Virus record (IMG/VR): IMGVR_UViG_2061766007_000756 | Origin: an uncultured virus (IMG/VR IMGVR_UViG_2061766007_000756) | Taxonomy: Duplodnaviria > Heunggongvirae > Uroviricota > Caudoviricetes | Strand: one strand, 5' to 3' | DNA length: 46,520 nucleotides | Part shown: in pieces, positions 15,295 to 39,969 of the stretch | Position numbering within the stretch: position 1 is the first letter of the stretch | How the letters are laid out: the number at the start of each line of letters is the position of its first letter | Position numbers and translations under genes: made by a program | The notes under the pieces: model-generated | The model's database searches: none | Told to the model about the DNA's origin: nothing | The model's input: only the letters and a program-made list of their open reading frames with translations

Positions 15295-16275
15295 ATGAAA
15301 TTTGGTGTACGCGAAATTTGCGATGTCGTTTTAAAAGCAAAGGCACCTCAAAGAATAGGCAATAAGCAATTCTTTAAGAATGAGCCTGTTATTTATTTCG
15401 ATACTTTAAAGACCTCCAGCATGGAAGGTGCCGCTACCACTGTATATGCACAGGGTGGCCGTGGTAATTCACGTCTCATCGCTTGGGAAGGTGAGCGTAC
15501 CGTTACCTTCACAATGGAAGATGCACTGATTTCCCCTGCTGGATTTGCTATTCTTTCTGGTGCTGGTTTAATTGAAGCTAATAGCAATGCTACAATTAAG
15601 CAGCATACAACAGAGCAAACTGATGCTGTTGTTGTAAATGGTTCAAGTGTTGATATTTATTTATCTGAAAAGCCTTTTGATAAGGCCGGTGAAGATTTTA
15701 TTTATGTTATGGTTCTGAAGGATGGCGAAGTTGTAACCGAGCCTTATATTCCTGCACATCCTGGTGATGTTGAGGCTGAAGGCGAAGATAGTGATTTCGC
15801 TGGCAAGTTCAAGATTTCTCTTCAAGATCGCGATGCCGATGACATTGAAGATGATTTTTATGATGGCTGCATCGTTCTTGTTGACTACTATGTAGAAAGA
15901 GCTGCTGGTGCTCAACAGATCGAGATTACTCCTGACAAGTTTGGTGGTAACTACTATCTTGAAGCTTCCACCCTGTTCCGTGATACCAATGGTGTAGACC
16001 TTCCTGCAGAGTTCATCATTCCTAACTGCAAGATTCAGTCTAACTTCACCTTTACCATGGCTTCTTCAGGCGATCCTTCTACTTTCACCTTTACAATTGA
16101 CGCATTCCCAGATTACTTAAGATTCGACAAGACTCATAAAGTTCTTGCCGCTATTCAAATCATTGACCCTGTCTCTGAGGACAAGTTTGTTACTCGTGAG
16201 AGAGAACATACTAAAGAAGAGGATGACGAAGTCGGTCGTGAACAGACTTGGTCTCCAAAGGTTCTTAAGGACTAA
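15295..16275 (+). CDS. Major tail (tube) protein
   Basis: AAGGAGG RBS, 326 aa, beta-rich (VYAQGGRGN, TVTFTMEDA, FTFTMASSGDPSTFTFTIDA), high-expression codon bias, no TAG. No sheath gene nearby. Confidence 0.8.
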   Translation: MKFGVREICDVVLKAKAPQRIGNKQFFKNEPVIYFDTLKTSSMEGAATTVYAQGGRGNSRLIAWEGERTVTFTMEDALISPAGFAILSGAGLIEANSNATIKQHTTEQTDAVVVNGSSVDIYLSEKPFDKAGEDFIYVMVLKDGEVVTEPYIPAHPGDVEAEGEDSDFAGKFKISLQDRDADDIEDDFYDGCIVLVDYYVERAAGAQQIEITPDKFGGNYYLEASTLFRDTNGVDLPAEFIIPNCKIQSNFTFTMASSGDPSTFTFTIDAFPDYLRFDKTHKVLAAIQIIDPVSEDKFVTREREHTKEEDDEVGREQTWSPKVLKD

Positions 16276-18772: not shown

Positions 18773-21700
18773 GACTTGGGTTTTAGGCAGATACTAGTCA
18801 AGCTAAAGCTCAAATTGATGCATTAAATCAATCATTGCAGAAAATAGCAACTTCAATACCAAATTTAAAAAATAAATTTGATACTTCTGCTATTCGTGAT
18901 GCTAGTAATGCTGCAATGGAATTGCAACAGCATTTACAAAAAGCTACAGATGTAAATACTGGCAAGTTAAATCTAGCTACTTTTTAGGCTTCTTTAAAGG
19001 CCTCTAATAAAGATTTAAATCAATTAAAAAGAGATTTAGAAAAAATTGGTCCAGAAGGTCAAGATGCTTTTATGCAAGTATCTTAGGCTATTGCATATGC
19101 AGAAAATCCTATTAAAAGAGCGAATAAAGCATTAGATAATTTTAAAACTACTTTAATGAATACTGCAAGATGGCAAATTTCTTCAAGCATTTTACATGGT
19201 TTTATGGGGGCTATTCAATAGGCTTATGGATATGCACAAGATTTAAATCAATCATTAAATAATATTAGAATTGTTACTGGGTACTCTACTGATGAAATGG
19301 CAGCATTTGCTACTCAAGCAAATAAGGCAGCGCAAGCATTAAGCACAACAACAACTAGTTATACTGATGCAGCCTTAATTTATTATCAACAGGGTATTAG
19401 AGATTAGGCACAAATAGCTGCTCGTACAGATGCGACTATTAAATTAGCAAATGTATCTAGACAAAGTGCTGAAGAAGTTTCGCAACAAATGACAGCTATT
19501 TGGAATAATTTCTATGATGGTAGTAAAGCATTAGAATATTATGCTGACGCTATTACTGCATTAGGTGCAAATACTGCATCAAGTTCAGAAGAAATTGCTA
19601 CTGGTCTTGAAAAATTTGCGGCAGTGTCTAAAACAGTTGGTTTATCATATGAATATGCAACTGCTGCATTAGCAACAATTACAGCTCAAACTCGTCAAAG
19701 TGCTGATACCGTTGGTACTGGTTTAAGAACTTTATTTGCACGTTTAGAATCTTTAAAACTTGGAGAAAGTCTTGAAGATGGCGTTGATTTAAATAAATAT
19801 TCTAAAGCGTTGCATGATGTCGGTGTTGAAGTATTAGACACTAGTGGCCAAATGCGTAATATGGATAATATTCTTGATGATTTGGCTATTAGATGGGCTA
19901 ATTTAGGTCAAGCTTAGAAAATGGCTTTGGCTCAAACCGTTGGTGGTGTCCGTCAATATACAAACCTTATTGCATTGATGGATAATTGGGATAAAATGCA
20001 ATAGAATGTTATTACAGCACAAGAGTCAGAAGGCACATTATCACAACAAGCTGAAATTTATGCTGAATCTTGGGAAGCTGCTCAAAAACGAGTTAAAGCG
20101 GCTTTAGAAGAAATTTATGGTAAATTAATTGATGATGATTTTTTTATTTCTTTAAATGATACTTTAGCAACTACTATTAATATTGTAAGTGGTGTTATAG
20201 ATAGTTTTGGTGGTTTAAAAGGAATTTTAATGGCTATTGCTGGTATTTTTATGCAATCATATGCAAAAGAAGTACCAAGAATATTAGAAAGATTAAAAGA
20301 AGATATTTTAATAACTACTAATAAAGCTCAATAGGCTGCGGCACAATTACAGACTAAAAATTCACAAAGTTTNNNNNNNNNNNNNNNNNNNNNNNNNNNN
20401 NNNNNNNNNNNNNNNNNNNNNNNNNNNGCTGCTGAAGCATAGTTTTTAGCAACAATTAGTAAACGCAAAGCTGAATTAAATGCTAATAGCGCGAAATATT
20501 CAAAAGATGAATTAACAAGAGCAAATAACGAAATTTCTCGATTAGAGTTACAAGGAAAAAGATTAATTGAAATTGGACAGCGATATGATGATTTAAAAAC
20601 AAAAGTTGGTAGTTTAAGAAATAGTTTANNNNNNNNNNNNNNNNNNNNNNNNNNNNNNNNNNNNNNNNNNNNNNNNNNNNNNNNNNNNNNNNNNTGGTTC
20701 TAATACATTAATGCAAAGCGTAAAAGATGGGTCTGTTGCTTATGATGATGCTAAAATAAAACTATAGGCTTATGCAGATGCTTTATTGTAGACTAATCCT
20801 AATGCACAAGAATATAAGGATTTTGCAAAAGATGTANNNNNNNNNNNNNNNNNNNNNNNNNNNNNNNNNNNNNGAAGATTCTGTTAAAAAATTATAGGAA
20901 CTTATTAAAGCATTAGTTGATTATTCTATGACCGGGGCTGATAAAAGTAGTGAAAATTATAAACGAACTTTAGAATCTATTGGTGATAAATCTGAACAAG
21001 TTCAAGGCCAGTGCAGAGAAATGGGTGCGGCAGCAGTAGAGGCTGGACAAAAGTTTGTTGAAGGAGCACATGGCATTAAAACATTTGATCAAGGCTCAAA
21101 TAAATTACAATAGCATATGACTACTACTTCTGAATAGATCGTAACTTTTGCTGGTACTTTAATGACTTTAACAGCAGCTATGAATTCAATGAAAAGACTC
21201 GGAGATGTATTTTCTGATGAAGACTCATCTGCTGTTGATAAGGTTAGTGCTGCTATTGGAGCATTAGTTAGTATTATAACTGTTTTACAAGGCCTTAAAA
21301 AAATACAAGTTGCTTTAAATAATGCAGAGGCGGGATCATTAGGAGCGGTTATAGCTGGTTGGATTACTGAAGCTTCAACTAAAGGTGCAGCAACTGTGGC
21401 TCAAGAAGGTTTAAATGCAGCTATGTATTCTTGTCCATTGGTCTGGATTATAGGTTTAGTAGTGGNNNNNNNNNNNNNNNNNNNNNNNNNNNNNNNNNNN
21501 NNNNNNNNNNNNNNNNNNNNNNNNNNNNNNNNNNNNNNNNNNNNNNNNNNNNNNNNNNNNNNNNNNNNNNNNNNNNNCAGAAGAGGCTAATAATAGATTA
21601 AAAGATATTAAAGATACTGTAGATGGTTATACTTCAGCGATTGAAAAATTAGAATAGTGTACTAAAGGTACAGAAGCATGGGATGAGGCCTTAGCTAATG

Positions 21701-24700
21701 TATACCAAAAGATTGATGAATTATTGAAAAAATATCCAGAATTATTGTCTTATGGAAATTTATTTAATGCAGATGGAACTTTAAATACATAGGTTTTAAA
21801 TGAGTTTTTACAAAAGGCAACCAATAGTGCTGCTGCAGCTACAGCAGCATCTTATAGAGCAACGGCTAAGTCTCAATAGGCATAGGTGACTGCTGAAGCT
21901 AAACGTATTAATGATAAATATATGGTTGAACAAGATACTGGTGAAACAGATGACGATGGTAATAGAATTACTGAAAATATAAATAAGGGTCATATAGATA
22001 AAAGTCTTGCAACAGTTCAAACAGATTTAGATAAGTTAATGAGTTCTTATAAAATAATTGGTAGCTCAAGCTTGGAATTAGGTGATGTTTATCAATCTGT
22101 TGGTAATGTTACACAAGAATATGCAAATACTTTAATAGATTTAGCAAATAAACAAATTCAAGCACAAACCGCAATGAGTAATGCTACTAAATTGACTATT
22201 GATAAATGGGCACGTGATAATGGTCAAGAATTAGTAGACGGTCAAAATGCATTAATGTCAGTTGAATATGATAAATTATATGAAGATTTTTCTAAGGCCG
22301 TTAAAGAAACAAGTAATACAATGGCTCAAACTGCGACAGCAGATACTTCGCATTTGGGCGCTATTTTTAATGGAACATCTTTGGAAGGATTGTCGATTAC
22401 AGAAGCTTATAACAAAGCAAGAGGAAAAAATGAATCAACTGCACGTAATGCTGTACGTGGCTCAAAGGGTAATAGAACTTATGCCTATTTAGATGAAGAT
22501 GGAAAAGAAGTAGAATATAAATTAGAAGATATGTAGGCTAAAATTGCTGCTTATGCTGCTTTAGAAAAAATGGGCAAAGCGGCAGAAGAAGCATCTGCCA
22601 GAGTTTCTCAAATGAATACTGGCGTAGCTAAATTTATTGGTTCTGGATCATTAGAAAATTTAAGTCGTAGAGAATATAAGTCTATTAGAGATTCATTCGA
22701 TGAAAATGGAATTACTCAACAAACTGCATATGATTATTTATTAAAATAGACTGGCTCAGAAGAATTAGCAAAAAAATTAACAGACGATTTTGTAAAACAG
22801 ATGAGCGCAGGATGGAATGATATTTTTGATGAATTACCTAAAGAATTAAGTGAAAAAATAACAGAAGGTATGACTATCGCTAGTGCAACATCTTTAACCA
22901 AAACTTTATCTAAATTAAATTTTGGTCCTTTAGGAGAGGAAGCTGGTACAGAGTTTTCTAAAGGTCTTAATGACATGTTGACTGGTATGGATGAAGCCGA
23001 TTAGCAAAATGCATTAAATCAATTAGCTAATATAGATTGGTCTAATTGGGATGCTATGGAATAGGCCAATGCTATTTTACAATCTTTTGGTCATGAATTA
23101 GATTTAACCGATCCTCGCTGGAAAAAGTTTACTGATTATATGCATAAAGCAACTGTTGCTCAACCTGATTTTGCAAAATTAAGAGATACTTTATCATCAA
23201 TTGTTCCAATTTTACAAAATTTAAATTTTGGTAGTATTATTAAAGATGAAGATTATTAGAAATTAATTAAATNNNNNNNNNNNNNNNNNNNNNNNNNNNN
23301 NNNNNNNNNNNNNNNNNNNNNNNNNNGATCAAGAAGATATGTTAAAAGCCACCAGAGAAGCAATACAAGAAGAAAAAAAAGAATTAGATAATAGAGCAAA
23401 ACTTGCTAATAATTTAAATAAAGCTGGTTGGCACAACACCGTAAGTGGAGAAGCTATTGATTTTACAAATGTTGATGATATGAAACGTTATAATTTATCA
23501 ACATTTTTGGGTTCTTCATCATTTGGTGATATTGTTGAAGCTATGGGATATACTACTGATTAGATACAAAAATGGTCTGATAGTGGTAATACTGAAGCTT
23601 TAAATCAGTTTTATGAAAAGTTTGCTGAATTTACATCTCAAGACTATGGAGAATTAAGTGAACAAGTAGATGAGCGTTTAGCTTCTATGACTACTAATTT
23701 AGAAGAATTAAATGCTATACAAAGTGAAATTTCTCAAAAAGCTTATGATAAACAATTTAAAGCACTTAGCACAGAAGCATTAAACTCAGCTAATTCAATA
23801 GATGAAGTAAAAAAAGTTTTAGAAGAATATAATCTTGATGAAAGCGTTGCAGCAGATAAAATTCGTGAATTAGGCCTTGCTGCAGTTGATCAAGCTAAAT
23901 CATTTGATGAATTAAATGAAATTCTTAAAGAATATGGTTTACAACCTGAAGATATAGCTAAAAAAGAACATGAATTAGCTTTAGAAGCAGCAAATGATGC
24001 AGAAACTTTAGATGAATTAATTGAATTACGTAAAACCTATGGATTAACTACTGAAGAAGTTGGTGAAAAGACTGCTAATTTTGCCAATAATTTATTGGCT
24101 TTGCATAAATTATTAGAGCAAGGTCTTATTGATCAAGAACAATATAATAAAAAAGCTCAAGAACTTGTAAATGCAAGATTTGAAGCAGTTAATACTGTAT
24201 AGGAATTAGATAATTTAGTTTCTGAATTAAATGCAGCAGCTAATTTATTAGGAGATGATAGTACTTCATTATTTAATCAATATTCTGAAACATTAATTCG
24301 ATTAGGCGAAGCTTGTGAAAATGCTACTAAAGAAACTTATGATTATAAAGAAGCATTAGAAGATGTAATGCGAGCAGAAGAAGAGCGCAATCAAGCAAAT
24401 ATAGCATTAAGTTCTTTAATGGCAGATGACACACATAATGAAAGTGAAGAATTAGAAGCTACTAAAAGANNNNNNNNNNNNNNNNNNNNNNNNNNNNNNN
24501 NNNNNNNNNAAAAGAAGTTAGCTGAAGCTGAAGATTATTTGCGTGCAGCCACCAAGGCATCAGATAGCGCTTCAAAATATGGTTTTGATGCAAAAGTAAT
24601 TGAAAATCAAGCTAAAGAAATTCGTCAATTAAATGGAGACATTGAAATTTCTGCAGAAGAAGCTGTTGAATTAGCAGTTGCAAATCAAAGATTAAATAGA

Positions 24701-27700
24701 GGTATTAAAACTCTTAATGAAAATTTTGAAGATTGGCGTCAAACCTTAGAGTCAACAGATTCAACTTCTGTTGAATATGCTGAAACCGCTACACAAGTTG
24801 AGTCTGCTATTGCTGATTTAATTGGGGCTGCAGATGATTTCGATTTACCACCAGACTTTTTAGAAATGCCTGGTGTTTTAGATAAGATAGAATTAGCGGC
24901 TANNNNNNNNNNNNNNNNNNNNNNNNNNNNNNNNNNNNNNNNNNNNNNNNNNNNNNNNNNNTATTAATGAGTAGCAATTTGAAAATTATAAATTAACTGT
25001 TCTACAAGGTATTCAAGATATAACAGATAATTTACCTTCTTTATTAGATAGTACAATGACCATTCAAGAAGCAATGAATGGAACTGCTGGTACTTGGGTT
25101 TAGTCATTAAATGAAATGGCCAAGGCTACTGGAATGTCTGTAGAATAGATGAATGGATTATTAAATCAATTAGGAGTGCAGGCCAAAGTTGATGTAATAT
25201 CTGTTCCTCAAGATATGGAAGTTCCTACTTATGATGAATATTCTCAATTAGTTGAATCCGAAAAAACTCATGCTACTTATAAAGGACCTGATGGAGAAAC
25301 TATTGAATATGAAATACCTAAATATCATAGAAGAACTTGGACCGTACCAGGTTAGCCATTGACTGTTGAAGGATATGCTTAGGTTGCTTAGATTAGCACT
25401 GTTGAAGGAAAAACTCCAGAAGCATCAATTAATTTTACTGGTGTTGGTGGTACTTCTAAAGCAGCAGGTACCTCTAGACCTCGTGGTGGAGGAGTATCTC
25501 CTCGCTCAACTTCGCCAAAAACAACCAAAACTTCAACTCCAAAATCTACTAAAAAAGAAGTTAAAGAACATAAAAATTTAACTGATGAAAAAGAACGTTA
25601 TCATTTGATAAATCAGCAAATTGAACGCCAAACTAATTTATTAGACAGATTAAGTAAAAACAAAGATAGAGCATTTGGTCCTAATAAACAAAAATATTAT
25701 GCACAAGAATTGAAATCTTTAAAAGATATGGGTAAGATGTATGAAGAACATCTTCGTCAATCTTCCGCATATCTAGCTCAAGATAAAGCAGTAATGCAAG
25801 CTTGGGGTGCATAGATTTCAGCCAAAGATGGTTCTATTTTGAATTATGATGCTTTATTAAAGGCACAAATTGATGCTTATAATAGAGCTGTAGATAGATA
25901 TAACGCTTCTAGTCAAACCGATGCCGATAAAGATGCTTTAAAAGCTGCTGAAGATAGATTTAAGAAATTTCAAGATGATTTAAAACAATATGAAGATACA
26001 GTTAAAACTCATGAAGAAGATATAAATAAATATATCGACAATATGATTGAACAATATGACACAATGCAAGCTAAAACTGCTGATGCCATTGAGTTCCGTA
26101 TTGAGTATGATGATTCTGTATTAGATTTCTTAGATAAATTAATTGACAGATTAGATAGTTGGAATGGTAGTATGTTTGCGGCCGTGGATATTATGGGTAA
26201 ATTAAATGATAAGACTGGCGCACTTATTGAGAAAAATAAAGATTTAGAAACTGCTACTGCTGAAACTCTTGAGCATTTCTTAATGGATTATAAAGAATTC
26301 GATAAGAATGGCAATATTACATTCCAAACTGGATTATCTAAACAAGCTTCTCAAGAATTTATTGGTAGATTTAATGCTGGTGAATTGACTACTGAAGATA
26401 TTCAAATGCTTGCTCATATGCCAGAAGAAGAACGTCAACTTCTTATGGACTATGCACAACAAAGACAAGATAATACTGATGCTTTAATTGAAACCGCACA
26501 AGCTGTTGTTGATGATGTAGAAAGATAGTTTAATGATGCTAAGGACGAACTTGCGGAAGCCGCTCGTCCGATCAGAGAGGCCACAGCAGCATTAGATAAC
26601 TATGCAGCTATTATTGATATTGTTGGTGCGGATTATCTTGGCGTAACTGATGATATTATGCTTAGATTCAGAGACCAACAATGGAATGTTTTACATGATA
26701 CTACAATGGCGAATAAGGCAACCATGGAAGCTCTTGGCGAACAAAGAGATATGATTGAAGACCTTATGAATAAAGCATTGGCTGCTGGTGATGATGAACT
26801 AGCAGAAATGTATCGTGAAAAATTAAAGGGTATTAATGATGAAGTTCAATCAGCAACAGAAGAATGGTATTCATCTTGGCAAGCTGAATTAGGTAAATTA
26901 GAAGAAGATTTTGAAAAGCATATTGATGAGATTAAAACTAAGGCATTGGATCTTGCGGCCGGACCTAATAACACATGGCAATCATTAAAAGATACTATGG
27001 ATTATGCACAAAAAGCTGCTGAAAGATTTTTGCCTGAATATAAAGAAATTTATGAATTTAGTAAATTAAATCGTGATATAAATAAATCTATTGATGATAC
27101 TGATAATATTAAAAATAAACAAGCATTAAAGAAATTACAAGAAGAGATTAATAAATTACAAGAGCGTTCTGGAGAAATTAGCCAATATGATTTAGACAAT
27201 GCTCGCCGCAAATATGAATTAGAATTGGCCAGATTGGCTCTTGAAGACGCTCGTAGCGCCAAAGAAGTTGTCCGTTTAAGTAAAGATTCTGAAGGTAATT
27301 GGTCTTATATCTATACAGCAAATGAAGAAGATGTTGCAAATGCTGAACAGAATTATGAAGATAAATTATATGCTATGCAATCAGCCAATGCTGATTATAT
27401 AAATAATTTACAAGGTCAATTAACTCAAGCTACTGAAGATTATTATAATAAAGTTGCTGAAATTAATCTTGTTTATAAGGACGATGATGATAGACGTCGT
27501 GAAGAATTAGCTAAAGCAAAAGCGCAATATGAAGAAACCATGGGATATTATAGTAATGAACTTCAAAAAGCTATGGATAACAATAAAGAGCTTTATGAAG
27601 AAGATTGGGCATGGTATTCTGATTATACTAAGAAAATTAATGACGATCAAGGTTATCGTCTTGGCGAATTAGATAATTATATAACTGATTTTAATGATAC

Positions 27701-28782
27701 AATGCTTGGTATGGCTACTGGATATGACAATCTGGNNNNNNNNNNNNNNNNNNNNNNNNNNNNNNNNNNNNCAAATGAACGAAACTTATGAACATTTAGC
27801 CGAACATATTAAATTATCTATGGAAGATGCTGGAACTTCTGTTGATGAATTTGCTCAAGAAATGATGGAGCAAGTTGATGAGGTTATTGTTCCAAAAGCT
27901 GATGAAGGACGTGATGCGGTTGAAGAATTAGCTGATACAACAGTTGATGCAATGCAAGCTCTTGTTGATTAGGCTGATGCTTGGCGCAGAAAATATGAAG
28001 ATGATATGCAAGCAATTATTGATAAGAATAATTTGGTTGTTAAATCTATTCAAGATGTAACTGGTGCATTATCTGTATTGCATAAACAAGAAATTGGTCA
28101 TGATGAAAGTACTGGTGGTTCTCCAGAAAATCCAGAAGGCTCTGGAACTGGAAGCACAGGTGTCGGTAAGGATGCTACTGGTTCTGGTAGTAAATATAGT
28201 AGAAGCGATTTTATGAATTATACTTATTCTGGGAATGGTACGGACAGAAAGTATTATATTAATGGACAATATGTTGGACGTATTGTTGGATTTGAAAATG
28301 GTGTATCTGTACAAGATACGACAGAAGCGAAAGTAATTCAAGCTTTAATTAATGCTGGTATTTGGGGTAATAATTATACAGCTGGTACTTGGAATCCAGT
28401 AAATCATAGAAGCAAAGAAGAAATCTTTAAACAATTTGGATTTGCTTCTGGCGGTTATACTGGTGAATGGGCTGGTAATGAAGGTAGACTTGCTATGTTA
28501 CACCAAAAGGAATTAGTATTAGATGAAGATGATACAAAGAATATGCTAAAAAGTGTTGAAATTATCAGATCTCTTGCTTCAATGATTGACCTTAATGCGA
28601 AAGCTTCTGAATTTGCTATTGGTAATTTGAGTGCGGCAAGCGCAAAATTCATGCCGACACAACTTGAGCAAACGGTAACTATTAGTGCAGAGTTCCCGAA
28701 TGCAACCGATAGAAATGAAATTGCTGAAGCCTTTGATATTTTAATTAATCAAGCATCTCAATATGCTAATCGAAAATATTGA
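18773..28782 (+). CDS. Tail tape measure protein (~3,300 aa; start in N gap; many TAG)
   Basis: LGF[TAG 18784]ADTSQAK, with further in-frame TAG at 18985, 19084, 19219, 19405, 19915, 20002 and others. TMP core (LGANTASSSEEIATGLEKF, GTGLRTLFARL), long Ala/Glu/Lys helical region, C-terminal FASGGYTG...AMLHQKELVL. Ends TGA before a terminator. Confidence 0.9.
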
Positions 28783-28871: not shown

Positions 28872-28898
28872 ATAATGAGAGAAAGGAGTTAGTTGCAT

Positions 28899-31800
28899 AT
28901 GGCAGGNNNNNNNNNNNNNNNNNNNNNNNNNNNNNNNNNNNNNNNNNNTGTATCAAAGCGTATAGAAGATCTTGGCTATGATAAAACTATTATATGCACA
29001 ATCACCGATGATGGTGACTCATCCAATGGGCATTATGTCGTTAATAATGGGTCAACCAGTTTTGACGCATATTCAGAAGATACTGGATATAAGAAAAACG
29101 ATAGTGTCTATGTAACTGTCCCAAAAGGTGATTTTACTCAACAAAAAATAATTATAAGTAAATATACGGCAAACAATGGAACAGATCCAATTGCTTATAT
29201 TTCACCATTAGAGAATATTTATTTGGTTTCCAATAATTTGGTAACTGGTACTAATTTAAGAAACAATTCAATACTTGCTAATGGTAAGTTAGAGCCAGAA
29301 TATGTAGAGCGTGATGAGTTAGAAGGACGAGACGTTCATTATATTCCTCCGGGTAGATATAGACTTATTTGGGAACAGGATTTAACAGCCAATCAAGATG
29401 CGGCATTATTAAATAATGCAGTATTTGATACCTTAGCTGTTAAAGCAAAATTTAAGTGCGGCTTGGGGTCTTTATATAATATGAAATCAGGCCACTATGG
29501 ATTGATTTTTGAATTATTCTCTGTTGTAAATCCTGATGCTACTCCAATAGAGTATAGAGTTACCAGATTTGATTTTAATAATGGAGAATTTTTCGGTAAT
29601 CCATATATGTTTTTATCTTATGTTGAATAGGAAAAATATTTTGGTATTAGTGCTTTAGGTAATATNNNNNNNNNNNNTATCAAAGCAGCGATTTTAAATA
29701 TCGTGGTAATGTCGATATTACAGATTCAGTTGTACCAACTCCGGCAGCAAGCATTAATTTAACCGAGTTACAAGCAAGATATGATGCAGCAGTGGCCGCA
29801 TATAATACTCATAATACTGCTGAAAATTATTTAGCAAGACAAGAGGCTGAATAGGCTTTAACTTCTGGATAGAATTTAATTGTTCGTGAAAATAAAGGTT
29901 TGTTAAATAATATCTTTGTTGAAGATTTAGAAGTTTATTTTGGTATGGATTTAACTCGTGTTGCTGATAATACTTTTTCTATTTATACTAATGGTACATC
30001 TACTTTTAATACAAATAAAGGTGATGACTATAATACAAAATTAATTATGCCAGTTTGGTTTAATAAAACTGAACAGGGTGAATATATAGGCTTTTCTGAT
30101 GGAATTTATGATTTTCTTGAATCAACAACTGAGCCGGTCGGTAAAAATTATACTGAAGATGATTATATGACTCTTGCGGCTTATTATAATAGTGCAATGA
30201 GACTTGATTAGCAATAGTTGATTGATATGGGTATTCCAGCTGTAAAAGAGCTAATGTTTATTTATGCTTACATGTTACAAGTCCAATAGAAATTAGATCT
30301 TTTGTATAGAAAAGCTTCAACTGATATAAATAGATGTTATACTAAAGTACAACAAGATTTGCGAGGTTATCAGACCGCTGGTCAAAGAGCCGAAACACTT
30401 GAACAATATGAAAGTGTAACTGCTCAAACAGGTTCTTATGCTAATCTATTAAAATATTTAGGAATTATTAAAGAAGATACAAATACTTCAGAAGCATGGA
30501 ATAATATTATTATTCCAAGTTTTCGTTAGGCGATAATTAATTCATTAGTTGAATTTGGCTAGGTATATACTGGTCAACGACAAATTTCTTCAATATCAAC
30601 TTATCCTGATAGTGGGGATGATGTGCCAGGTATTATGACAACATTAGTTGGACAAATCGATACTGTAAAAACTTGTTTAGCCAATGCCAAAAATAGTGGT
30701 TTGAGTTATTTTAATAATATTCATACATATGTTGATAGTGACGTAATGGCTATTTGGGACAATTGGAAAGCTTCTTTAGAAAAAGTTTTTGAAGAGTGTG
30801 AAGAAATAGTCACATCAATTGAGAACATTTTAGAAAGAACTAATCCTGGTGAATCAGCTAGTGATGCAGAGAAGTTGAAATATTGGGGAACAATTTTATT
30901 TCAATATATATCTGTTTATGATAAATTCCAAAATAGTAAATTTGAAGATTTTGAAGCAGAGCATCAATTATTTATTGATTCTTATGCTAATCGTTATTGT
31001 ATTTATTATTATAGATATGTTGATAATTATTTTAATGAAAATGAAAAATTTATGCAAAAAGGTTGGCAACGAATTGAATCATTAACAAATTTAGGCTTGC
31101 CTGATGGTTACACAACAGCTGATAATGGGGATCTTATGTACGAGCCTCGCGCAAAAGATTCTTCATTTACTTATACTATTGGTGATGCAACACTTAGATC
31201 GGAAAGAATTCAAGCTGTTTTATTTTATAATCATTAGATGTTTAAAAGTAATATATTAACATTCTATAATGAAGAACCAGTAGTTGATGAATCTACTAAA
31301 GATACTATTACTGGTTTATATATTTAGCTCACTGATGAAGTTTTAGGCACTTCTTTAGATGAAGAAGGTAATCCAGAAGTAATACACAAAGATACTTATA
31401 ATTCTAAAGAAACTTATCAACTATATGATATTACTAATACTTTAGTTAATGGTGCTGAGGCTTATAAAAAGCGCAAATTGCGTGCAAGATATAAAAGTGC
31501 GCGCAAAGGTGATAATTATTTAAAAAAGAATTGTGTTATTTATTGGTATGTTCCTTTAACTGGCACAATGTTGACTTATAGTCGTGAAGATTTGATTGCG
31601 GCCGGCTTTTCTGTGTATGAGCCAGGTTATTTACGCGGAACAGACGCACTTCAAGAACAAAAACGTGCGCTTAGAAGAGTTGATTATTTAACTGATGAAG
31701 ATTATCAAGAGGCAATCGCTAATTTAGAAGCGAATTTTACTGGTGATCTTTATCCAGCTCCTCCTGCTCNNNNNNNNNNNNNAAGGATATATGATGGCTT

Positions 31801-34800
31801 ACAAGAATATTGCAGCCGAATCAGACGAAGACTTAGTTGCCGCAACAGAGTTTATTTATCAAATTAAAAATTATTTTGTTCCCACTTTTACCAATAATAC
31901 AATTTATTGCCGAGTTGTAAAAAGTGGAACGCCATTTGATGCTGAACAATTATTTACTTTTGCTTCTCTTGGTACAAATGGTACAGATTATTCATTAACT
32001 ATTACTCCAGCTACAAACCAGGCTGCAGTAAAAAATAATGAAGCTTTGTAGTTACAAGTTAAATTGTTTGACTGCAATGGCGATCAAATATTTTCAACAC
32101 CAATTGATACTTCATTATATGGAAAATCATATAATGGCGTTGGTAGTAATGCAACTGAAGCCGCTCCTGTGATTGTAGGCGGGGCCGCACCGAATATCTT
32201 AGTATCACGTTTACAAGCTGGTTCTCAATATGGATATTCAGTTTTAAAAGCTTCAGCTACAGTCGAGTTAGCTTATGAAACAGACGGATAGGTAGAAAGC
32301 AATGACCCATTATTAAGTCAAACTGGATAGGTTGATGAAAATGGAGATTTGGTATTAGATAATGGAAGTGCTAGTTCTACAAATAAAAAAACAAGAACTA
32401 TTACTCTTGAATCATATTATCCGATTCCTTGGTCTGCTGGAGACTATTATATTGAAGGGGCTTCTGTAGTAGTATATGATTCTTTAGGACAACATCCAAC
32501 ATATTATAGTGATCCATTTGTTTTATATAATATGGTAGATAATTCTAAAGTTGAAGGACAAAGATGGTCTATTCAATGTTATCCTGTTAATTAGAAAAAA
32601 ACGACTTTAATTTCAAGTTATATGCCTTGGATTAAACATATAACATCTGATTAGAATGGAAATGAAGTAGATGAGTATCGTTTACAAGTGTCCAATATGT
32701 ATTTAGCAGATAATGATTATGTTTGTTCTGCTGTATGTACTCTTGCTGGTTAGGTAATATATGTTCAACCAATTTTAATAATTAAAAATAGATTTTCCAG
32801 TCCTATGTTGAATAATTGGGATGGAGAATTGACAATTGACAAAAAAAATGGTACAATATTAGCGTCAATGGTAGGTGCCGGTAAAAAAGAAAAAGATAAT
32901 ACTTTTTCTGGAGTGCTTATGGGTGAAGTTGCCGCAAAGACAGAAGATAATTCTACTTCTATCGGAATGTATGGATACAATCATGGCGAGCAATCATTTG
33001 GTTTCCGTGATGATGGTACTGCATTTTTAGGTAAAGCTGGGCGCGGTCGTATTGAATTTAATGGTAATGAAGGCCGCATTCAAAGTGCTTCATATGCAGA
33101 CGCTGTTAATGATGGCGCTAAAACCGGTATGATGATTGATTTAGATGATGCTTGGATTGATATGCGTGGTGCATATGTTTTAGAGCAAAGCAAACAATCT
33201 ACAAGATGGCAATATGATGTACCAAATAGTCAAAATAATAATGAAGTAAATAGAACTACTTAGAATCTTAATAGTGATTATAGTACTTTATTACCAAATT
33301 TAACTCAATATGGTGCTTCTGGTAGTCAAGTTAAAATTTCTGCAACAGATCCATTTTTGATTGTTAAGACTCCTGGAGTATATTATTATACAGATAGTTA
33401 TTTAACATCTCCAGAAAATAGTAAAATTGATGCTTATAAATCATTTTGGGAATCTATCCCTTATTATGGAGATTAGATGCCTTGGCATACAAATGCTTAG
33501 GGATAGAATGATTATGACGAAGCTAAAGCGCGTGCTTATATTGTAGATTATTTGAATTGTACATATAATATTTATAATGCAGAAAAATATTATAATGACA
33601 ATTATACAATGGGTCAAGCAACAGCTGGTAGTAAAAAAAGTCCTGTTGACTTTTTATTAGCAATTGTTGGATAGCCGTCAAACGCATATTTTAAAGTTGT
33701 AGAAAATATTGAATCAAATGTAATTGCTAATTCAACATTAGCAACGTATATGGTTGATTGGGCTGGTTTAGGTATTTCTATTGCTAATAACGCTCATGAA
33801 GCTGCTTATACAACATCTGATATTTAGCAATATGATGAAGTTATGTATGAAAATGATTATTTGTATTGCTATATGGATAATGGTGCAGAAACCTTAGCGC
33901 GTAATGATCATTTAAAAATTCAATATATCTCAAAAGATGATGCTAAACTATTGGGTCTTAATAAGGCTTCTTATCCAAAAAAATTAAAAGATGGTAATTA
34001 GGCTACATTTGTTAATGCTGATGGTTTAGAAATTACTAGCGTAATTCTTAGAAGTGCTAGCGGTGGTGGTTCAACTAATTTAGTATCTCTTGGTACAAGC
34101 GTTGAGGATATTGCTACTAAAATTATTGCATCTTTAAGAGAATCTGTATTAGCTAATTCGGCTACTGGATATGCAAATAGATATTGTGTTAAGTTTTTAA
34201 GTAAATCTGATTTTGTAAGATGTTCAGACATGTATAAAACTGGACAAAACGGCAATAAAAAAGACCCAACAGATATCCTTTATGTTGGTATAAATGAATA
34301 TTTTTTATAGACTGATAATTTTTAGTCAGGTTCACTTGCTCAAAGTTATCAAGATGGCAGAGGATTAAAATTTGATTTAAAGCGTGGTTCATTAGAAGCT
34401 TATAATTTTACACTATTTGCCGCAAATCCAAGCACACAAAATGATGGTGCTAATTATGTAAAAATTAGTAGTAGTGGAGATCCATATATAAGAGTTGTAA
34501 ATAATGATGTATAGTTATTAAATATTACAACTAATAAATTCTTATTACAGTCTCAAAATTGGGATGGAACTACAGCTGGTACTCAAATTGATGTGGCCGC
34601 AGGTAAAATTACATCATATAATTTTAAACTTGTGGCGTATGATAAAGATAAACCAAATTCATATATTAAATTTTCAAGTGGTGGTAATCCATATTTACAA
34701 ATTAAATATGATGGTATTNNNNNNNNNNNNNNNNNNNNNNNNNCAATCTGCCAATTGGAGTTCTTCTGATAAAACTGGTGTTCAATTTGATTTAAAACGT

Positions 34801-36775
34801 GGTAGATTAATTGGATATGATTTTTATTTACGAATGGCAAAATCGGGACATGCAGTTACTGAATAGGCAGGGACAGAAGGTGATAATTTATCACTTACGG
34901 CAACAGATCAATAGGGTATGATTGTTATTGATTCTGGCAATGATACTACTCCATTTATTATTAAACATACTGGCGCAGGATCTCATTTCTTTAAGATATT
35001 TTGGGACGGTTCTATTGTTGCTACTGCTGGATTAATTGGCGGCTGGAGAATTAATAGTAATAGTATCTGGACCAATGGTACAAGTGGCGATGCTCCAACG
35101 GCAAGTAGTACTAGATTAAGTTCTACCAATTTTAATAGAGCATTAACTGGTTTTACAAAAGCTAATTATCCTNNNNNNNNNNNNNNNNNNNNNNNNNNNN
35201 GTAGTAAATTTGGTGTTGCATCTGATGGTACATTGTATGCTAGAAATGGTTATTTCCATGGCAATATTTATGCAGAAAGTGGTACTTTTAATGGAACTGT
35301 TTATGCAAGCGCTGGATCATTTACTGGTAATATCTATGCTAGTTACATAGAGACTTCTGGTGGCGGTAGAATTGCTGGTTGGACAATTGGAGCAAATGGT
35401 TCTGGTCTTTATAATGGTTCTGTTGGTATGAGTCCGTCTGGTCATGTATTTTATGCAGGTGGTAATTTTTACGTTACTGATGCTGGATATATTTATGCTG
35501 CTGCTGGCGGTCAAATTGGTAATTGGGATTTGACAGACAGCGGATCACTAGTATCTCATGGCACTTCAGAGGGGTCCGCTGGTGGATCTGGAATTTTATC
35601 TGGTGGTACTATTAAAGGTGGTACAATACTTGGTGGTACATTAGATATTGGACCAGCATCTTCAGTGCCAACTCAAGGAAATGGAAATTTTAGTGTTAAA
35701 TCTGATGGTTCATTTGGTGTTAATAACAATAAATTTAAGGTTGCTAACGATGGTAAAGTTAGTGTTAATAATAATTTTATTATTAATACTGATGGTAGCT
35801 TTTCTGTAAATAATAATTTTGTAGTAAATTCTGCTGGCGAAATACAAAAAATGAGTGGAGAAACAATAAAAACTATAGAATTTACGAATCTTGTTACTGT
35901 AGACAGCAACTTTAAATTTTTAGGTTTAGTTGGTACATCATATCGTCCTTATGCTAGAGCTGGTAGTGAGGTTCAAAGATGGGTATATGCAAGTAGTAGT
36001 AATACTTATAATGGTGTAGATATGCCAAGTATTGCTTTAGGATGGACCACTGTTGGTGTTTATGTAACAACTACAGAAGCTTATAATAATGCAGGAACCA
36101 CTGAGGGAGACCCTAAGTATTATGTACGTATTCCTACTTATATTAGTCATAATTTACGTTATAAGTGGCGGACTATGATAACTCCTCCACCAGAAGATGA
36201 TACTGCACAAGATACACAGTTATATTTAAATAATATAGCTATGTATTCAGGAGGTCGTGTTTCTCTTAAAGCTTTTGTTGCTGATCAAACTTCTAGTACT
36301 GGAAGTGGAACAGGCTGTTTTAGTAAAGGTACAAAAATTATGATGTGTGACAAAAGTTATAAAAATATTGAAGATATTCAAGTTGGTGACAATGTTTNNN
36401 NNNNNNNNNNAGACTTGTGAATCAAGCAATGTTATTACTGTTAATTCTTATAAAAATTGTTTAGTATATAATATTATTTTAGAAAATGGTCAAATAATTA
36501 AAGTTAGCGATTGTCATCCATTTATGACTGAAAATGGATGGGGCGCTATTGATATAAATAAAGCTTTAATTTACCATGGAGTATCTGCAATTAAATTGGA
36601 TAAAGGTTTATATATTCAACAATATGATAAATTAGTCAAAATAATAGATATAGTAAAAACTAATAAATATGAAACTTTATATGATATCGGAGTAAATCAT
36701 GCGGAACATACTTATATTGCAGATAATTGTGTTGTCCATAACGTTGTAACTTGGACTTAGATTGGTAAAGCATAA
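28899..36775 (+). CDS. Giant tail tip/central fibre-like protein (~2,600 aa) with C-terminal Hint domain
   Basis: AAAGGAG RBS. The ORF fragments join through TAG or N gaps; 33261-34718 was hand-translated and has no TAA/TGA. Gly-rich beta repeats (AGLIGGWRI, GRIAGWTI, GQIGNWDL, FGVASDGTLYARNG). Ends TAA 36773-75. A hidden gene boundary inside a gap cannot be excluded. Confidence 0.72.
36316..36742 (+). other. Hint (Hedgehog/intein) autoprocessing domain, BIL-like
   Basis: Block A CFSKGTKIMMCDKSYKNIEDIQVGDNV, block B IKVSDCHPFMT, blocks F/G ETLYDIGVNHAEHTYIADNCVVHN. About 140 aa, no endonuclease insert, +1 residue Val. The frame change falls at a short N gap. Confidence 0.9.
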
Positions 36776-36801
36776 AAAAGAGTAAAAGGAGGATTAAAGC
36801 C

Positions 36802-37178
36802 ATGATGATGACTTTAAAAAATAGTGAAATTTATAATTATGCCAATGCTCTTGCACAAGAGTTTGGCCAGCAAGAAGTGAAATTACCTCTTAAGGTTAAT
36901 TTTTATCTTCAAAAAAATTTAAAAGAACTTGTNNNNNNNNNNNNNNNNNNNNNNNNNNAGTTTCTATTGCTCAAGAGTTTGGTACTCTAAATGAAGAAAC
37001 TCAGCAATACGAGATCCCTCCGGAAAATATTGATTCCGCTTCTCGTAAATTAAATGAACTTTTTAATCTAACTCAAGATGTAAAGATTTATAAAGTAAAA
37101 TTAGATGCATTTGGAGATACAGATATTTCTAATGCTCAAATGCAAGCTTTATTATTTATGATTGATGAGGAGGAGTAA
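36802..37178 (+). CDS. Small helical tail-associated protein (possible fibre chaperone)
   Basis: AAAGGAGG RBS. KLPLKVNFYLQKNLKEL, gap, then SIAQEFGTLNEETQQYEIP...ALLFMIDEEE, TAA 37176-78. Confidence 0.7.
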
Positions 37179-37183
37179 TCAAT

Positions 37184-39969
37184 ATGGCGGGAAAATTATA
37201 TCCGCCTTACATTGATGGAAAAGTGCCTGCTTTTTGCGGAACGGAACTTGTTGTTCCGTTCCGCCATAACAGAGCTGTTAGTCAATTNNNNNNNNNNNNN
37301 NNNTAAAATAAAAACAGTTTCTACTAATGAATGGGTTTGGACCATTCAAATACCAGAAGGTGAAGATAATTATATTTTACATGATGAAAAAACTGGACAA
37401 TATTCTGTGGTATTTAATTTAGCAGAGAAATATAGAGGAAGAAAAGATCCAGATCTTAATGATTTTAAGCCCTACTATCAATGGTTGATAGAAGGGCTTT
37501 ATTATAAGATTCAATTAGCATATATTGATAATTCTGGTGAGGTAGGTTATTTTTCAGATGTAGGCGTAACTAAATATACTTCGAAACCAACTGTTACTAT
37601 TGATGGTTTAAATTCTTATGGTGTTAATAATAGCTTATATGATTATGTTGGCGTATATAGTCAATTAAATGGCGATACGGCAGAAAGAGCTTATTCGTAT
37701 AATTTTACAATTTATGATTAGGCTGATAATGTATTTATAACATCAGGAGAGCAAATTCACAATAGTAGTTTAGATACAGAAATTTATGAATCTAAAGACG
37801 AGTTTTACTGTAATAAAGAGCTGAAACCAAATGAGATTTATAAATTAAAATATACAGTTACTACAATTAATGGTTTGATTGCGGCTAGCCAAAGTTATTT
37901 AATTATGAAGAAAGATACTGTGCGTCCATCTATTAATGCAACTTTACATGCTGAAGTTGATTATAATGATGGTTTTATTGCTTTATCTTTAATTCCTAAT
38001 GATGATAGTTTCTATAGCGGTAATTTTGCTATTGCTCGCTCAAGTTCAAAAGATAACTTTTCAACTTGGGATGAAATCTGCAAATTTAGTTTAAATAGAG
38101 AATCACCTTTGCGTAACTTATTTAAAGATTTTACAGTTGAACAAGGAATTAGATATTGTTATTCATTACAACAATATAATACACGCGGTTTGTACTCTAA
38201 CAGAATGTTATCTGAAACTTTATATGCAGATTTTGAAGATATGTTTTTATACGATGGAAAACGTCAATTAAAAGTTCGTTTTAATCCAGGAGTATCATCA
38301 TTTAAAAATGATATTCTTGAGTCAAAACAAGATACGATTGGAGGACGTTATCCATTTATTTTTAGAAATGGAAATATTAAATATAAAGAATTTCCAGTTA
38401 CTGGTCTAATCTCCTATTTAATGGATGATTAGGCTTATTTTTTGCCAAAAGAAAATTTGGGTGCGCTCGAGCGTGAAACCACTGACCTGGTCTCTGATAA
38501 CGTAAGAGCCGAGCGCATGTTTAAATTAGAAGTAATGGATTGGTTAAATGATGGTAACCCAAAACTTTTTAGGTCTCCAACAGAAGGAAATTATGTTGTT
38601 AGATTATTAAATGTTTCATTGTCTCCTAATACAACAGTTGGACGTATGTTACATCAATTTTCAGCTACTGCTTACGAAGTTAGCGATACTAGTTTTGCTT
38701 CTTTAGAGGCTTTTGGCTTATTTACTGCGCCAAATCTTGAGACAATGATTATGCGCTTTAAAACAATTCAGCTTAATACGATAAGTATGCCAACTTGGGT
38801 ATGGGATGAGGAGCATCCTTCTAAGACATATTTAAATAATCCTCCTTCTATTACTGAAATTAATGCTCATAGCTCAAATGTACTTGCCAATCTGCCGATT
38901 GGCTATTTAGGTGTGTTTGAAGGGGTGGCGCCAGATACAATTTTTGGATTACGTTTTGAAAAAACTTCTGGTGAAAATTTAATTGAATATATTAGAATTG
39001 GAGAAACTCAAATTTATCAAATTAATGCTGGTGATAATAAACTTGCTGCTATTTATCCAATTTGGACTCCTAATATTATAAAAGGGTCTGCGGCAGACAG
39101 AAAATTTGATGNNNNNNNNNNNNNNNNNNNNNNNNNNNNNNNNNNNNNNNNNNNNNNNNNATTTCTAATTTTGATGTAGAAGATAGAATGACTCAATTCT
39201 TTGGTTTACATGATAATATTATTGAAGAATTAGAAGATATTCGTACTTCTGTTGGTAAATTATATTGGCTTAAATTTCAAGTTCGTGATATTAAAGAAAT
39301 TTATATTGATAAAACTGATACAATTAATCGCGGCAATATTTATTCTGATGCTTATAATCAAGTAGGATTGACTTGGAGCGAAATTTTACCAACAAGTGTA
39401 TATGCAGATAATTCGGTTTCTCCAGTAAGATATTATAGCGGTAAAGATATTTTAGATGGTAATACTACTTATCTTGTTGGTGGTGTTGCATATGCTAAAA
39501 TGCCAGCAATAATGATTGATAATAATAGTTATTATTGGACAGAAGAAACATATGATAATTGGGGTAGTTCTGGTACATCAGTTAATAGATTATATAAATT
39601 NNNNNNNNNNNNNNNNNNNNNNNNNNNNNNNNNNNNNNNNNNNNNNTTACCAATTTAGATAATGTAACAAGTATTTCAATTGGGCGCATGATTATGGTAG
39701 ATTGTTATTATCAATTGGTATCAAAATCTTATTCTATTGAAGATGAAGATCCAGACCTTGAAGAAGTAAAACGTGCTTGGATTACACAAAATGAATTATT
39801 CTTTGATGCGGTAAGAAGTGAAGAAATTGCTGAATCAACCAAAAATACAGAAACTGGTAGTTCTGGTGAGCAATATATAAGAGACCAGTATGCTATTGTA
39901 TAGGTAACTTATACAGATTATATCACTGCATTAAGAACTAAATTAACTTTAGCAGAACAGGGGGGGTAA
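37184..39969 (+). CDS. Putative distal tail/baseplate protein with beta-sandwich domains (TAG recoded)
   Basis: GAGGAGGAG RBS, MAGKLYPPYIDG. Motifs FKDFTVEQGIRYCYS, DTIGGRYP, WLNDGNPKLFRSPTEGN. Ends TAA 39967-69. Confidence 0.65.

Follow-up and report, generated by a model that had tools for sequence, protein, structure and literature searches.

The 46,520-nt stretch analysed here (the window; IMG/VR record IMGVR_UViG_2061766007_000756, an uncultured member of the Caudoviricetes) carries a giant tail gene whose product ends in a small, predicted self-processing Hint domain (Table 1). The gene is read in five pieces (28875-29665, 29678-31768, 31785-34718, 34744-36396, and 36413-36772), in which the only internal stops are TAG codons. 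Residues 21-251, 260-899, 907-1908, and 1921-2234 of one protein, P0007 (2,418 aa), are colinear with the pieces at 72, 48, 49, and 38% identity, and the pieces align likewise in order with P0013 (2,612 aa). Colinearity with the single protein P0007 indicates that the five pieces belong to one gene despite the frame-shifting runs of N. The start codon is uncertain because of an N run at 28907-28948; the gene begins 93 nt past the end of the tape-measure gene (28782). The designation as a giant tail protein is drawn from context, namely the tape-measure neighbour, the fibre repeats, weak PHROG matches (phrog_9413, "tail protein and host specificity", E 4e-4; phrog_5269, E 1.5e-7), and the further tail-annotated genes that lie downstream.

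Table 1. Positions of the tail gene, its C-terminal elements, and other landmarks in the window.
Feature	Position	Strand	Remarks
Giant tail gene	28875-36775	+	About 2,630 codons; 30 in-frame TAG; five pieces
Fibre-repeat region, GxIGGW-type	34744-35808	+	Common to many tail-fibre-like proteins
Distinct C-terminal domain ahead of the linker	35809-36288	+	No alignment to P0007 or P0013
Ser/Gly/Thr linker TSSTGSGTG	36289-36315	+	Gly at -1; preceded by ...KAFVADQ
Hint N part (block A), CFSKGTKIMMCDKSYKNIEDIQVGDNV	36316-36396	+	Cys1 at 36316-36318; Cys1-Phe at 36316-36321
13-N run inside the Hint domain	36398-36410	 	Frame +1 across the run
Hint C part, TCESSNVITVNSYKNCLVYNIILENGQIIKVSDCHPF...LYDIGVNHAEHTYIADNCVVHN	36413-36742	+	Block B SDCH at 36506-36517; block F; block G
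Tail after His-Asn	36743-36775	+	VVTWT, TAG (36758-36760), IGKA, TAA (36773-36775)
Next gene	36785-36804	+	Shine-Dalgarno AAAGGAGGA at 36785-36793; ATG at 36802; marks the end of the tail gene
Sigma factor	618-1805	 	PHROG match
Virion structural protein	15295-16275	 	PHROG match
Tape-measure gene	18835-28782	 	PHROG matches of the pieces 18835-20703 and 27694-28782

The Hint domain is recovered as two half-matches. Residues 525-551 of P0001 match positions 1-27 of Pfam Hom_end_hint (E 2.8e-6, 27.9 bits), and residues 6-110 of P0002 match positions 37-155 of the 155 positions of Intein_splicing (E 2.4e-6, 27.9 bits). Each half falls under the Pfam cut-off because it is only half a domain; two independent and ordered half-matches exceed chance and confirm the prediction of one Hint domain. 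It is about 145 aa long and has no endonuclease insert. Block F reads LYDIGV...HTYIADN, with its Asp, and block G reads CVVHN, with the His-Asn pair at 36737-36742. The whole-domain profile match, the Cys at position 1, and the S-x-x-H of block B are the marks of the Hint superfamily. An initial annotation, made from the letters of the DNA, had described a giant tail protein that ends in such a domain. Both profile halves and the P0007-colinear gene bear this out, and the linker and Hint features that it listed were found as described, except that it gave the gap as 36397-36410, one base off. A six-frame scan of the window with our own Hint profile, which includes the window sequence, found no second Hint. 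At E ≤ 1, P0001 and P0002 gave no match to Peptidase_S74 (PF13884), and no PT-HINT match was found in the window. Neither a toxin domain nor an adduct-recognition region follows the Hint: 10 codons remain and then TAA, so that the tail has 10 residues if the TAG at 36758 is read as Gln, and 5 if it is a stop.

The N run within the domain hides about 5-8 residues, and its true length has to be a multiple of three. P0008, a 166-aa fragment with 56% identity from the pre-Hint domain through the linker into the start of the Hint, is continuous through this point (...GDIV LSYNTLFKTY EKSNVVTVKSYNNCLVYNILLENG), with 10 residues set against the window's gap plus TC. With 8 X placed at the break, the window domain aligns cleanly to full Hints. 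The frames do differ across the 13 N, as they would in an assembly artefact in which a stop or junction lay concealed in the run and the halves were not one open reading frame (ORF). We consider this extremely improbable: the halves are complementary and ordered, P0008 is continuous, and frame changes at N runs are usual here even inside single genes. The window contains 43 N runs (2,115 N in total), and a simple heuristic comparing their flanks had the best open frame changing at 26 of them (+1 in 17, +2 in 9) and kept at the other 17, about what arbitrary gap lengths would produce. Since N runs generally break the frame, the change at this one is not evidence of a gene end. Runs such as 20629-20694, 31770-31782, and 34719-34743 may have originated as scaffold gaps or by length-altering masking. 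An atypically split intein, with a short N fragment and a frame change, was also considered and rejected, as the frame change coincides with the N run and P0008 is continuous there.

The sequence ahead of the Hint falls into two parts. In a HMMER search over 1.84 billion representatives, 158 matches were obtained at E ≤ 1e-3, of which 150 were listed, and what is said below of the listed matches refers to these 150. Most of them match the fibre repeats (query residues ~80-250), while query residues 429-550 are matched by P0008 alone (56% identity). Over its first ~2,200 residues the window protein matches P0007 and P0013, and its C-terminal cassette is common only to P0008 among the listed matches. 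We infer that the domain at 35809-36288 may be a distal or receptor-binding head. The match to P0008 runs from this domain on into the linker and the Hint, and on this alignment the pre-Hint domain and the Hint appear to move as one cassette.

The +1 residue is Val (GTT, 36743-36745). With Cys1, the block B His, and His-Asn in place and no endonuclease, the canonical transesterification at +1 is impossible, as had been proposed, and canonical splicing therefore cannot occur. Compared with canonical class 1 inteins, the domain has Val at +1 and no conserved insertion site, and no intein-less allele with joined flanks was found among the listed matches.

Hint domains are present in 30 of the listed matches. 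A single terminal Hint on a fibre-like protein is found there only in P0008 and in P0143 (1,891 aa); most of the other 28 carriers are tandem arrays, and all 28 are aligned via the Hint start only. P0143 is homologous to the window protein in its N-terminal and central regions and in the repeats, and ends ...SSG/CFIAGTKI...TLSHP...CIVHN/TVVVATEK (slashes mark the domain boundaries). A word search with this end, among 388 candidates, gave 30 proteins of 1,040-3,310 aa, and in 14 of them the Hint lies at the extreme end. Ten form a clade (P0143 and P0153-P0161; 1,634-2,129 aa) with N-terminal and central homology to the window protein and a Hint followed by 7-8 residues of the pattern x-V-V-V-x-x-T-K, where +1 is Thr in two, Ser in two, and Ala in six. 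The remaining four end in HN/IKDQAP, HN/KSKI, HN/KSR, and HN/KSRQ. P0176 and P0177, whose source label is YD-repeat, have after the Hint only KSR or KSRQ and no toxin domain, unlike the usual pre-toxin HINT. Many metagenomic proteins (P0018, P0020, P0028, P0059, and P0030 among others) contain tandem arrays of two to seven head-to-tail Hints, with junctions such as HNKGSCF.

A further terminal Hint was identified on L001, a metagenome contig of 2,103 nt whose ORF ends ...CVVHN/QKVPASAIN. About 740 nt past this ORF lies a gene that is 45% identical (E 2e-95) to the window gene at 37212-39191, and this matching downstream gene makes L001 syntenic with the window. L001 reads TGA as Trp (131-133 and about 1701), one such Trp being that of the GW motif conserved in Hints. 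Two stop reassignments are thus seen in related phages, TAG as sense in the window and TGA as Trp in the syntenic L001. The metagenome scan with P0002 returned distant loci only (29-36% identity) and no near-identical DNA spanning the gap; L002-L004 match the query Hint at 29% identity only. A protein homology search with P0002 at longer lengths gave nothing at E ≤ 1e-3. In L002, an unrelated contig, the match falls in a 640-aa non-tail protein (L002:4552-6474) with two canonical mini-inteins that have Cys at +1 (HN/CDLC and HN/CRCAW), and these served as outgroup rows in the tree described below.

The catalytic residues are conserved while the +1 residue is free to vary. Cys1 is present in 16/16 alignment rows, and no full-length row lacks Cys1, S/T-x-x-H, or His-Asn, at only 28-36% identity between clades; HN closes 116 of the 121 Hint copies that are complete in the fetched proteins. 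At -1 the residue is usually Gly, and Gly/Ser/Pro-rich linkers precede Cys1 in all clades. The relatives have Ala, Thr, Ser, Gln, Ile, or Lys at +1 and tails of 3-9 residues; by copy, Lys occupies +1 in 45 of the 96 internal ones, and the 20 terminal ones have Ala, Lys, Ile, Thr, or Ser there. Conservation of the catalytic residues among relatives, on which the initial annotation had made its interpretation depend, was therefore observed, and a variable +1 beside invariant catalytic residues points to cleavage chemistry rather than canonical splicing. Such invariance of Cys1, the block B His, and His-Asn would be unexpected for a purely structural role. It is thus unlikely that the Hint stays on the fibre tip uncleaved, with a structural or binding role, although Hint-like folds can be non-catalytic and the AXH profile also matches these domains.

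The same relatives bear on whether the domain is a decaying selfish mini-intein that settled near the 3' end, lost its +1 nucleophile, and has no adaptive role. The C part of the window's Hint is indeed nearest to true mini-inteins, and four of the ten members of the P0143 clade have Thr or Ser at +1. But the domain follows a flexible linker where a hypervariable region ends, rather than interrupting a conserved motif, the listed matches include no intein-less allele whose flanks correspond, and there is no endonuclease. Divergent phages, among them the syntenic one with a different genetic code, have moreover kept it with its catalytic residues intact, and we regard the selfish origin as very unlikely.

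The C-terminal position is occupied by different modules in related tail proteins. In 28 of the 150 listed fibre-repeat relatives an S74-like ending was detected with our own jackhmmer profile, and all seven of the S74-ended relatives sampled pass the Pfam Peptidase_S74 cut-off. The survey of tail-protein endings that the initial annotation had called for thus recovered S74 in some, a terminal Hint in others (P0008, the P0143 clade, and L001), and unrelated domains in P0007 and P0013. No allele ending in linker plus tail without a Hint was found among the listed matches. By analogy, the Hint would fill the same C-terminal slot as the self-cleaving S74 chaperone of related fibres, and occupation of this slot makes a removable maturation module the best reading of it.

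For the fold, an AlphaFold2 (AF2) model of the last 190 residues of P0143 (11-row alignment) was obtained, with a mean predicted local distance difference test (pLDDT) score of 79.9; the Hint reaches ~90, the linker stays below 50, and the tail is low. Foldseek placed this model closest to the bacterial intein-like (BIL) domain BIL2 of Tetrahymena BUBL1 (6y75, E 6.4e-12), followed by the C. thermocellum BIL (2lwy, E 1.6e-9) and the Ssp DnaB mini-intein (1mi8, E 2.1e-9), with template modelling (TM) scores of 0.8-0.87 to BIL and intein structures; Hedgehog (1at0) was far weaker (E 7e-6). A profile dominated by the P0143 clade likewise matched 6y75 (9e-19) and 2lwy (4e-18) ahead of the DnaB intein (7e-13), by about five orders of magnitude. 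P0002 alone, searched against the PDB, matched DnaB inteins (E 0.04). A quick tree was built from 92 Hint copies, and in it L001 clusters with the tail clade of P0160 and P0143, with a support of 94 in the Shimodaira-Hasegawa-like approximate likelihood ratio test (SH-aLRT). As in type A BIL domains, the window's Hint has His-Asn, no +1 nucleophile, and no endonuclease, and lies in a variable region of a non-conserved protein. In sequence it carries each functional hallmark of such a domain and is, by descent, a candidate member of the group. The likening to A-type BIL domains in the initial annotation holds for His-Asn without a +1 nucleophile. By sequence comparison the window's domain is no nearer to type A BIL than to mini-inteins; the P0143 clade is nearer to BIL.

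Taken together, we favour, at somewhat better than an even chance, a BIL-like autoprocessing Hint that is predicted to cut at the Gly-Cys junction and to be shed, acting as a removable maturation module and neither as a selfish intein nor in toxin release. The last ~145 codons of the tail gene encode a mini Hint tethered by a flexible linker behind the distal domain. In the folded protein, Cys1 would attack the carbonyl of Gly(-1) in an N-S acyl shift, assisted by the block B His. The thioester would then be resolved mainly by hydrolysis or by a small nucleophile, leaving a mature tail protein that ends ...TSSTGSGTG and releasing the Hint. The His-Asn probably cyclises too, freeing the 5-10-residue tail. 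Shedding is read from the invariant catalytic residues with a free +1, from the way the domain is tethered, from there being nothing downstream, and from S74 in the same slot; the low pLDDT of the linker in the P0143 model and the Gly/Ser-rich linkers of all clades agree with a tether. The observation made in the initial annotation is thus confirmed, and its interpretation, a domesticated maturation device for the tail tip, is partly supported; the role in folding that it suggested by analogy with S74 is a hypothetical one.

Several results weigh against this assignment. Every chemical step above is a prediction, for the window protein and for its family alike. The structural model is that of the relative P0143 and not of the window protein, whose own Hint is broken by the 13 N with ~5-8 residues concealed. 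A profile built from the window and L001 has mini-inteins at its top, those of RadA (2e-5), DnaB (3e-5), and RecA (~1e-5), and BIL is absent among its 20 matches at E ≤ 0.1. In the tree, the window's Hint stands on a long branch (1.74) among tandem-array Hints, with weak support and outside the tail-terminal clade, and a common origin with the other tail-terminal Hints is therefore conjectural. The closest full-length relatives, P0007 and P0013, have no Hint. Lastly, strict retention of His-Asn and of the tail is not needed for simple shedding, and leaves room for splicing-like or ligation chemistry.

In splicing of the type A BIL kind, Asn cyclisation would free the tail, whose alpha-amino group would attack the Gly-Cys thioester, so that the tail joins ...GSGTG and the Hint is excised. 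The mechanism is described for type A BIL domains with His-Asn and no +1 nucleophile in the relevant part of PMC4031507. His-Asn and a short tail are found in 14/14 terminal-Hint proteins and in L001, and the tail pattern of the P0143 clade is conserved. Cleavage products dominate in type A BIL domains according to the same source, however, and the listed matches include no Hint-less relative whose end is linker plus tail. The tails also diverge between clades (KSR, IKDQAP, AVVIAKN, and VVTWTQIGKA), so that a functional spliced peptide is hard to see, and we assign this outcome a low probability.

The Hint could also act as a ligation device, passing the Gly thioester to an outside nucleophile such as a molecule of the host surface or a Lys, either in the tail peptide or in another virion protein. 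This proposal is made by analogy with Hedgehog and with BIL2 of Tetrahymena, the closest solved structure and sequence to the Hint of the P0143 clade, which forms a Lys isopeptide bond as reported in the pertinent section of PMC8616854. Lys is present in 18 of 20 terminal tails, the rows not being independent, and in the tail of L001. The Lys of the window tail (36767-36769) is present only if the TAG at 36758 is read through. A rule that every terminal tail has a Lys nucleophile had to be rejected, as the P0093 tail (AGT) and the 14 residues printed for the P0131 tail hold none, and these two tails count likewise against ligation. The Hint is followed by no adduct- or substrate-recognition region, a partner was not found, and a stable virion is an unlikely place for a labile thioester precursor to last. 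Trans-ligation to the next gene product was rejected, as that protein starts MMMTLK and has no N-terminal Cys. We hold a ligation device to be improbable. Equally doubtful is the corresponding role, again argued from analogy, of the Hint as a covalent coupler that would transfer the C-terminal Gly thioester of the fibre to an amine or hydroxyl acceptor.

The remaining observations concern the coding of the window and its other genes. With translation table 11, the plus strand holds only short ORFs between 29 and 37 kb, whereas reading TAG as Gln opens long ORFs along the entire window. Gln is the commonest residue opposite the TAG positions in P0007 (6 of 28) and in P0013 (4 of 25), which fits TAG=Gln but is no proof of it. 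A search for tRNA genes in the window found none, so no suppressor tRNA backs this assignment. The tape-measure pieces 18835-20703 and 27694-28782 match positions 495-950 and 2411-2607 of one PHROG profile of 2,625 positions, and this shared profile indicates a single tape-measure gene running through several frame-changing N runs. The gene has at least ~3,300 codons, its middle pieces (21415-27791) having no family match. The large pieces of the window matched no PHROGs family and gave only sub-threshold Pfam matches (BatD, E 0.041; ERp29, E 0.24), and searches of PHROGs and Pfam with P0007 and P0013 found no family either. An AF2 model of the N-terminal 238 residues from seven sequences (pLDDT 43) was too poor to judge a Dit- or hub-like fold. 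No match was found by blastn (distant setting) of 35201-36900 against phage records, nor were related loci found in viral contigs with P0001 or with P0143. The Shine-Dalgarno sequence 8 nt ahead of the ATG of the next gene hints at a host with canonical Shine-Dalgarno-led initiation.

Tail-fibre maturation decides whether a phage particle is infectious, and the S74 chaperone is the self-cleaving C-terminal module so far known for fibres. If our assignment is correct, a Hint that recurs in this position would add another route, different in its chemistry because it passes through a reactive thioester. At least 13 proteins or loci of TAG- or TGA-reassigning phages have the terminal Hint module, which could mark swap-prone receptor-binding cassettes of uncultured recoded phages. 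A coupler, if real, would provide cross-linking or irreversible attachment of a receptor-binding protein, free of sortase and ATP. A fragment of ~350 residues with two point mutants makes a simple test system, and the family might supply natural tags for cleavage or ligation at a C-terminus in which Val, Ala, or Gln is accepted at +1. For annotation, a Hint at a protein end should not be treated as an intein to be spliced out in silico. We found no paper on a Hint domain ending a phage tail protein in a literature search whose coverage lay outside subscription journals; the inteins described for phiCbK in the part of PMC3556154 concerned are ordinary ones, in terminase and ribonucleotide reductase.

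Among known systems, the pre-toxin HINT (PF07591) is likewise a Hint autopeptidase behind a filamentous stalk. In the portion of Zhang et al. 2012 that treats them (PMC3482391), these peptidases stand behind RHS, filamentous-haemagglutinin, or tail-fibre-repeat stalks and always release a C-terminal toxin. No toxin follows the window's Hint, however, and its relatives match PF07591 only below the cut-off. The Peptidase_S74 chaperone (PF13884) of endosialidases and tail fibres also removes itself, and in fibre-like proteins with the window's repeats it likewise lies at the extreme C-terminus. It is trimeric and uses Ser-Lys chemistry, so that fold and chemistry are unrelated to those of the window's Hint and the likeness is by analogy only. 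Hedgehog/Hog proteins (1at0) resemble the window protein in having a C-terminal Hint, a Gly-Cys thioester, and an N-terminal product that is left behind. The Hedgehog Hint is not known to have His-Asn and is followed by a sterol- or adduct-recognition region, in place of the 5-10-residue tail of the window, and its fold match is weaker.

Closer in fold is BIL2 of Tetrahymena thermophila BUBL1 (6y75, 6tmm), the best structural and profile match of the P0143-clade Hint, which needs no Cys, Ser, or Thr at +1. In BIL2 a ubiquitin-like N-extein is moved to Lys, as given in the corresponding part of PMC8616854, whereas the N-extein here is a tail protein of 2,480 residues for which no acceptor was found. 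According to PMC4031507 and PMC7765530, which cite Amitai 2003 and Dassa 2004, type A BIL domains have His-Asn, form the N-terminal thioester, and undergo C-terminal cleavage by Asn cyclisation. BIL domains have no +1 nucleophile, and no branched intermediate is open to them; those of type A can ligate their flanks by aminolysis, cleavage products predominating (PMC4031507, PMC7765530). The window's Hint differs from the type A BIL of C. thermocellum (2lwy) in that its host is a phage virion protein, that it lies at the extreme C-terminus with 5-10 residues after it, and that its activity is a prediction. It shares with that domain the mini Hint with Cys1 and His-Asn, the lack of a +1 nucleophile and of an endonuclease, and the location in the variable part of a protein that is surface-exposed and not conserved.

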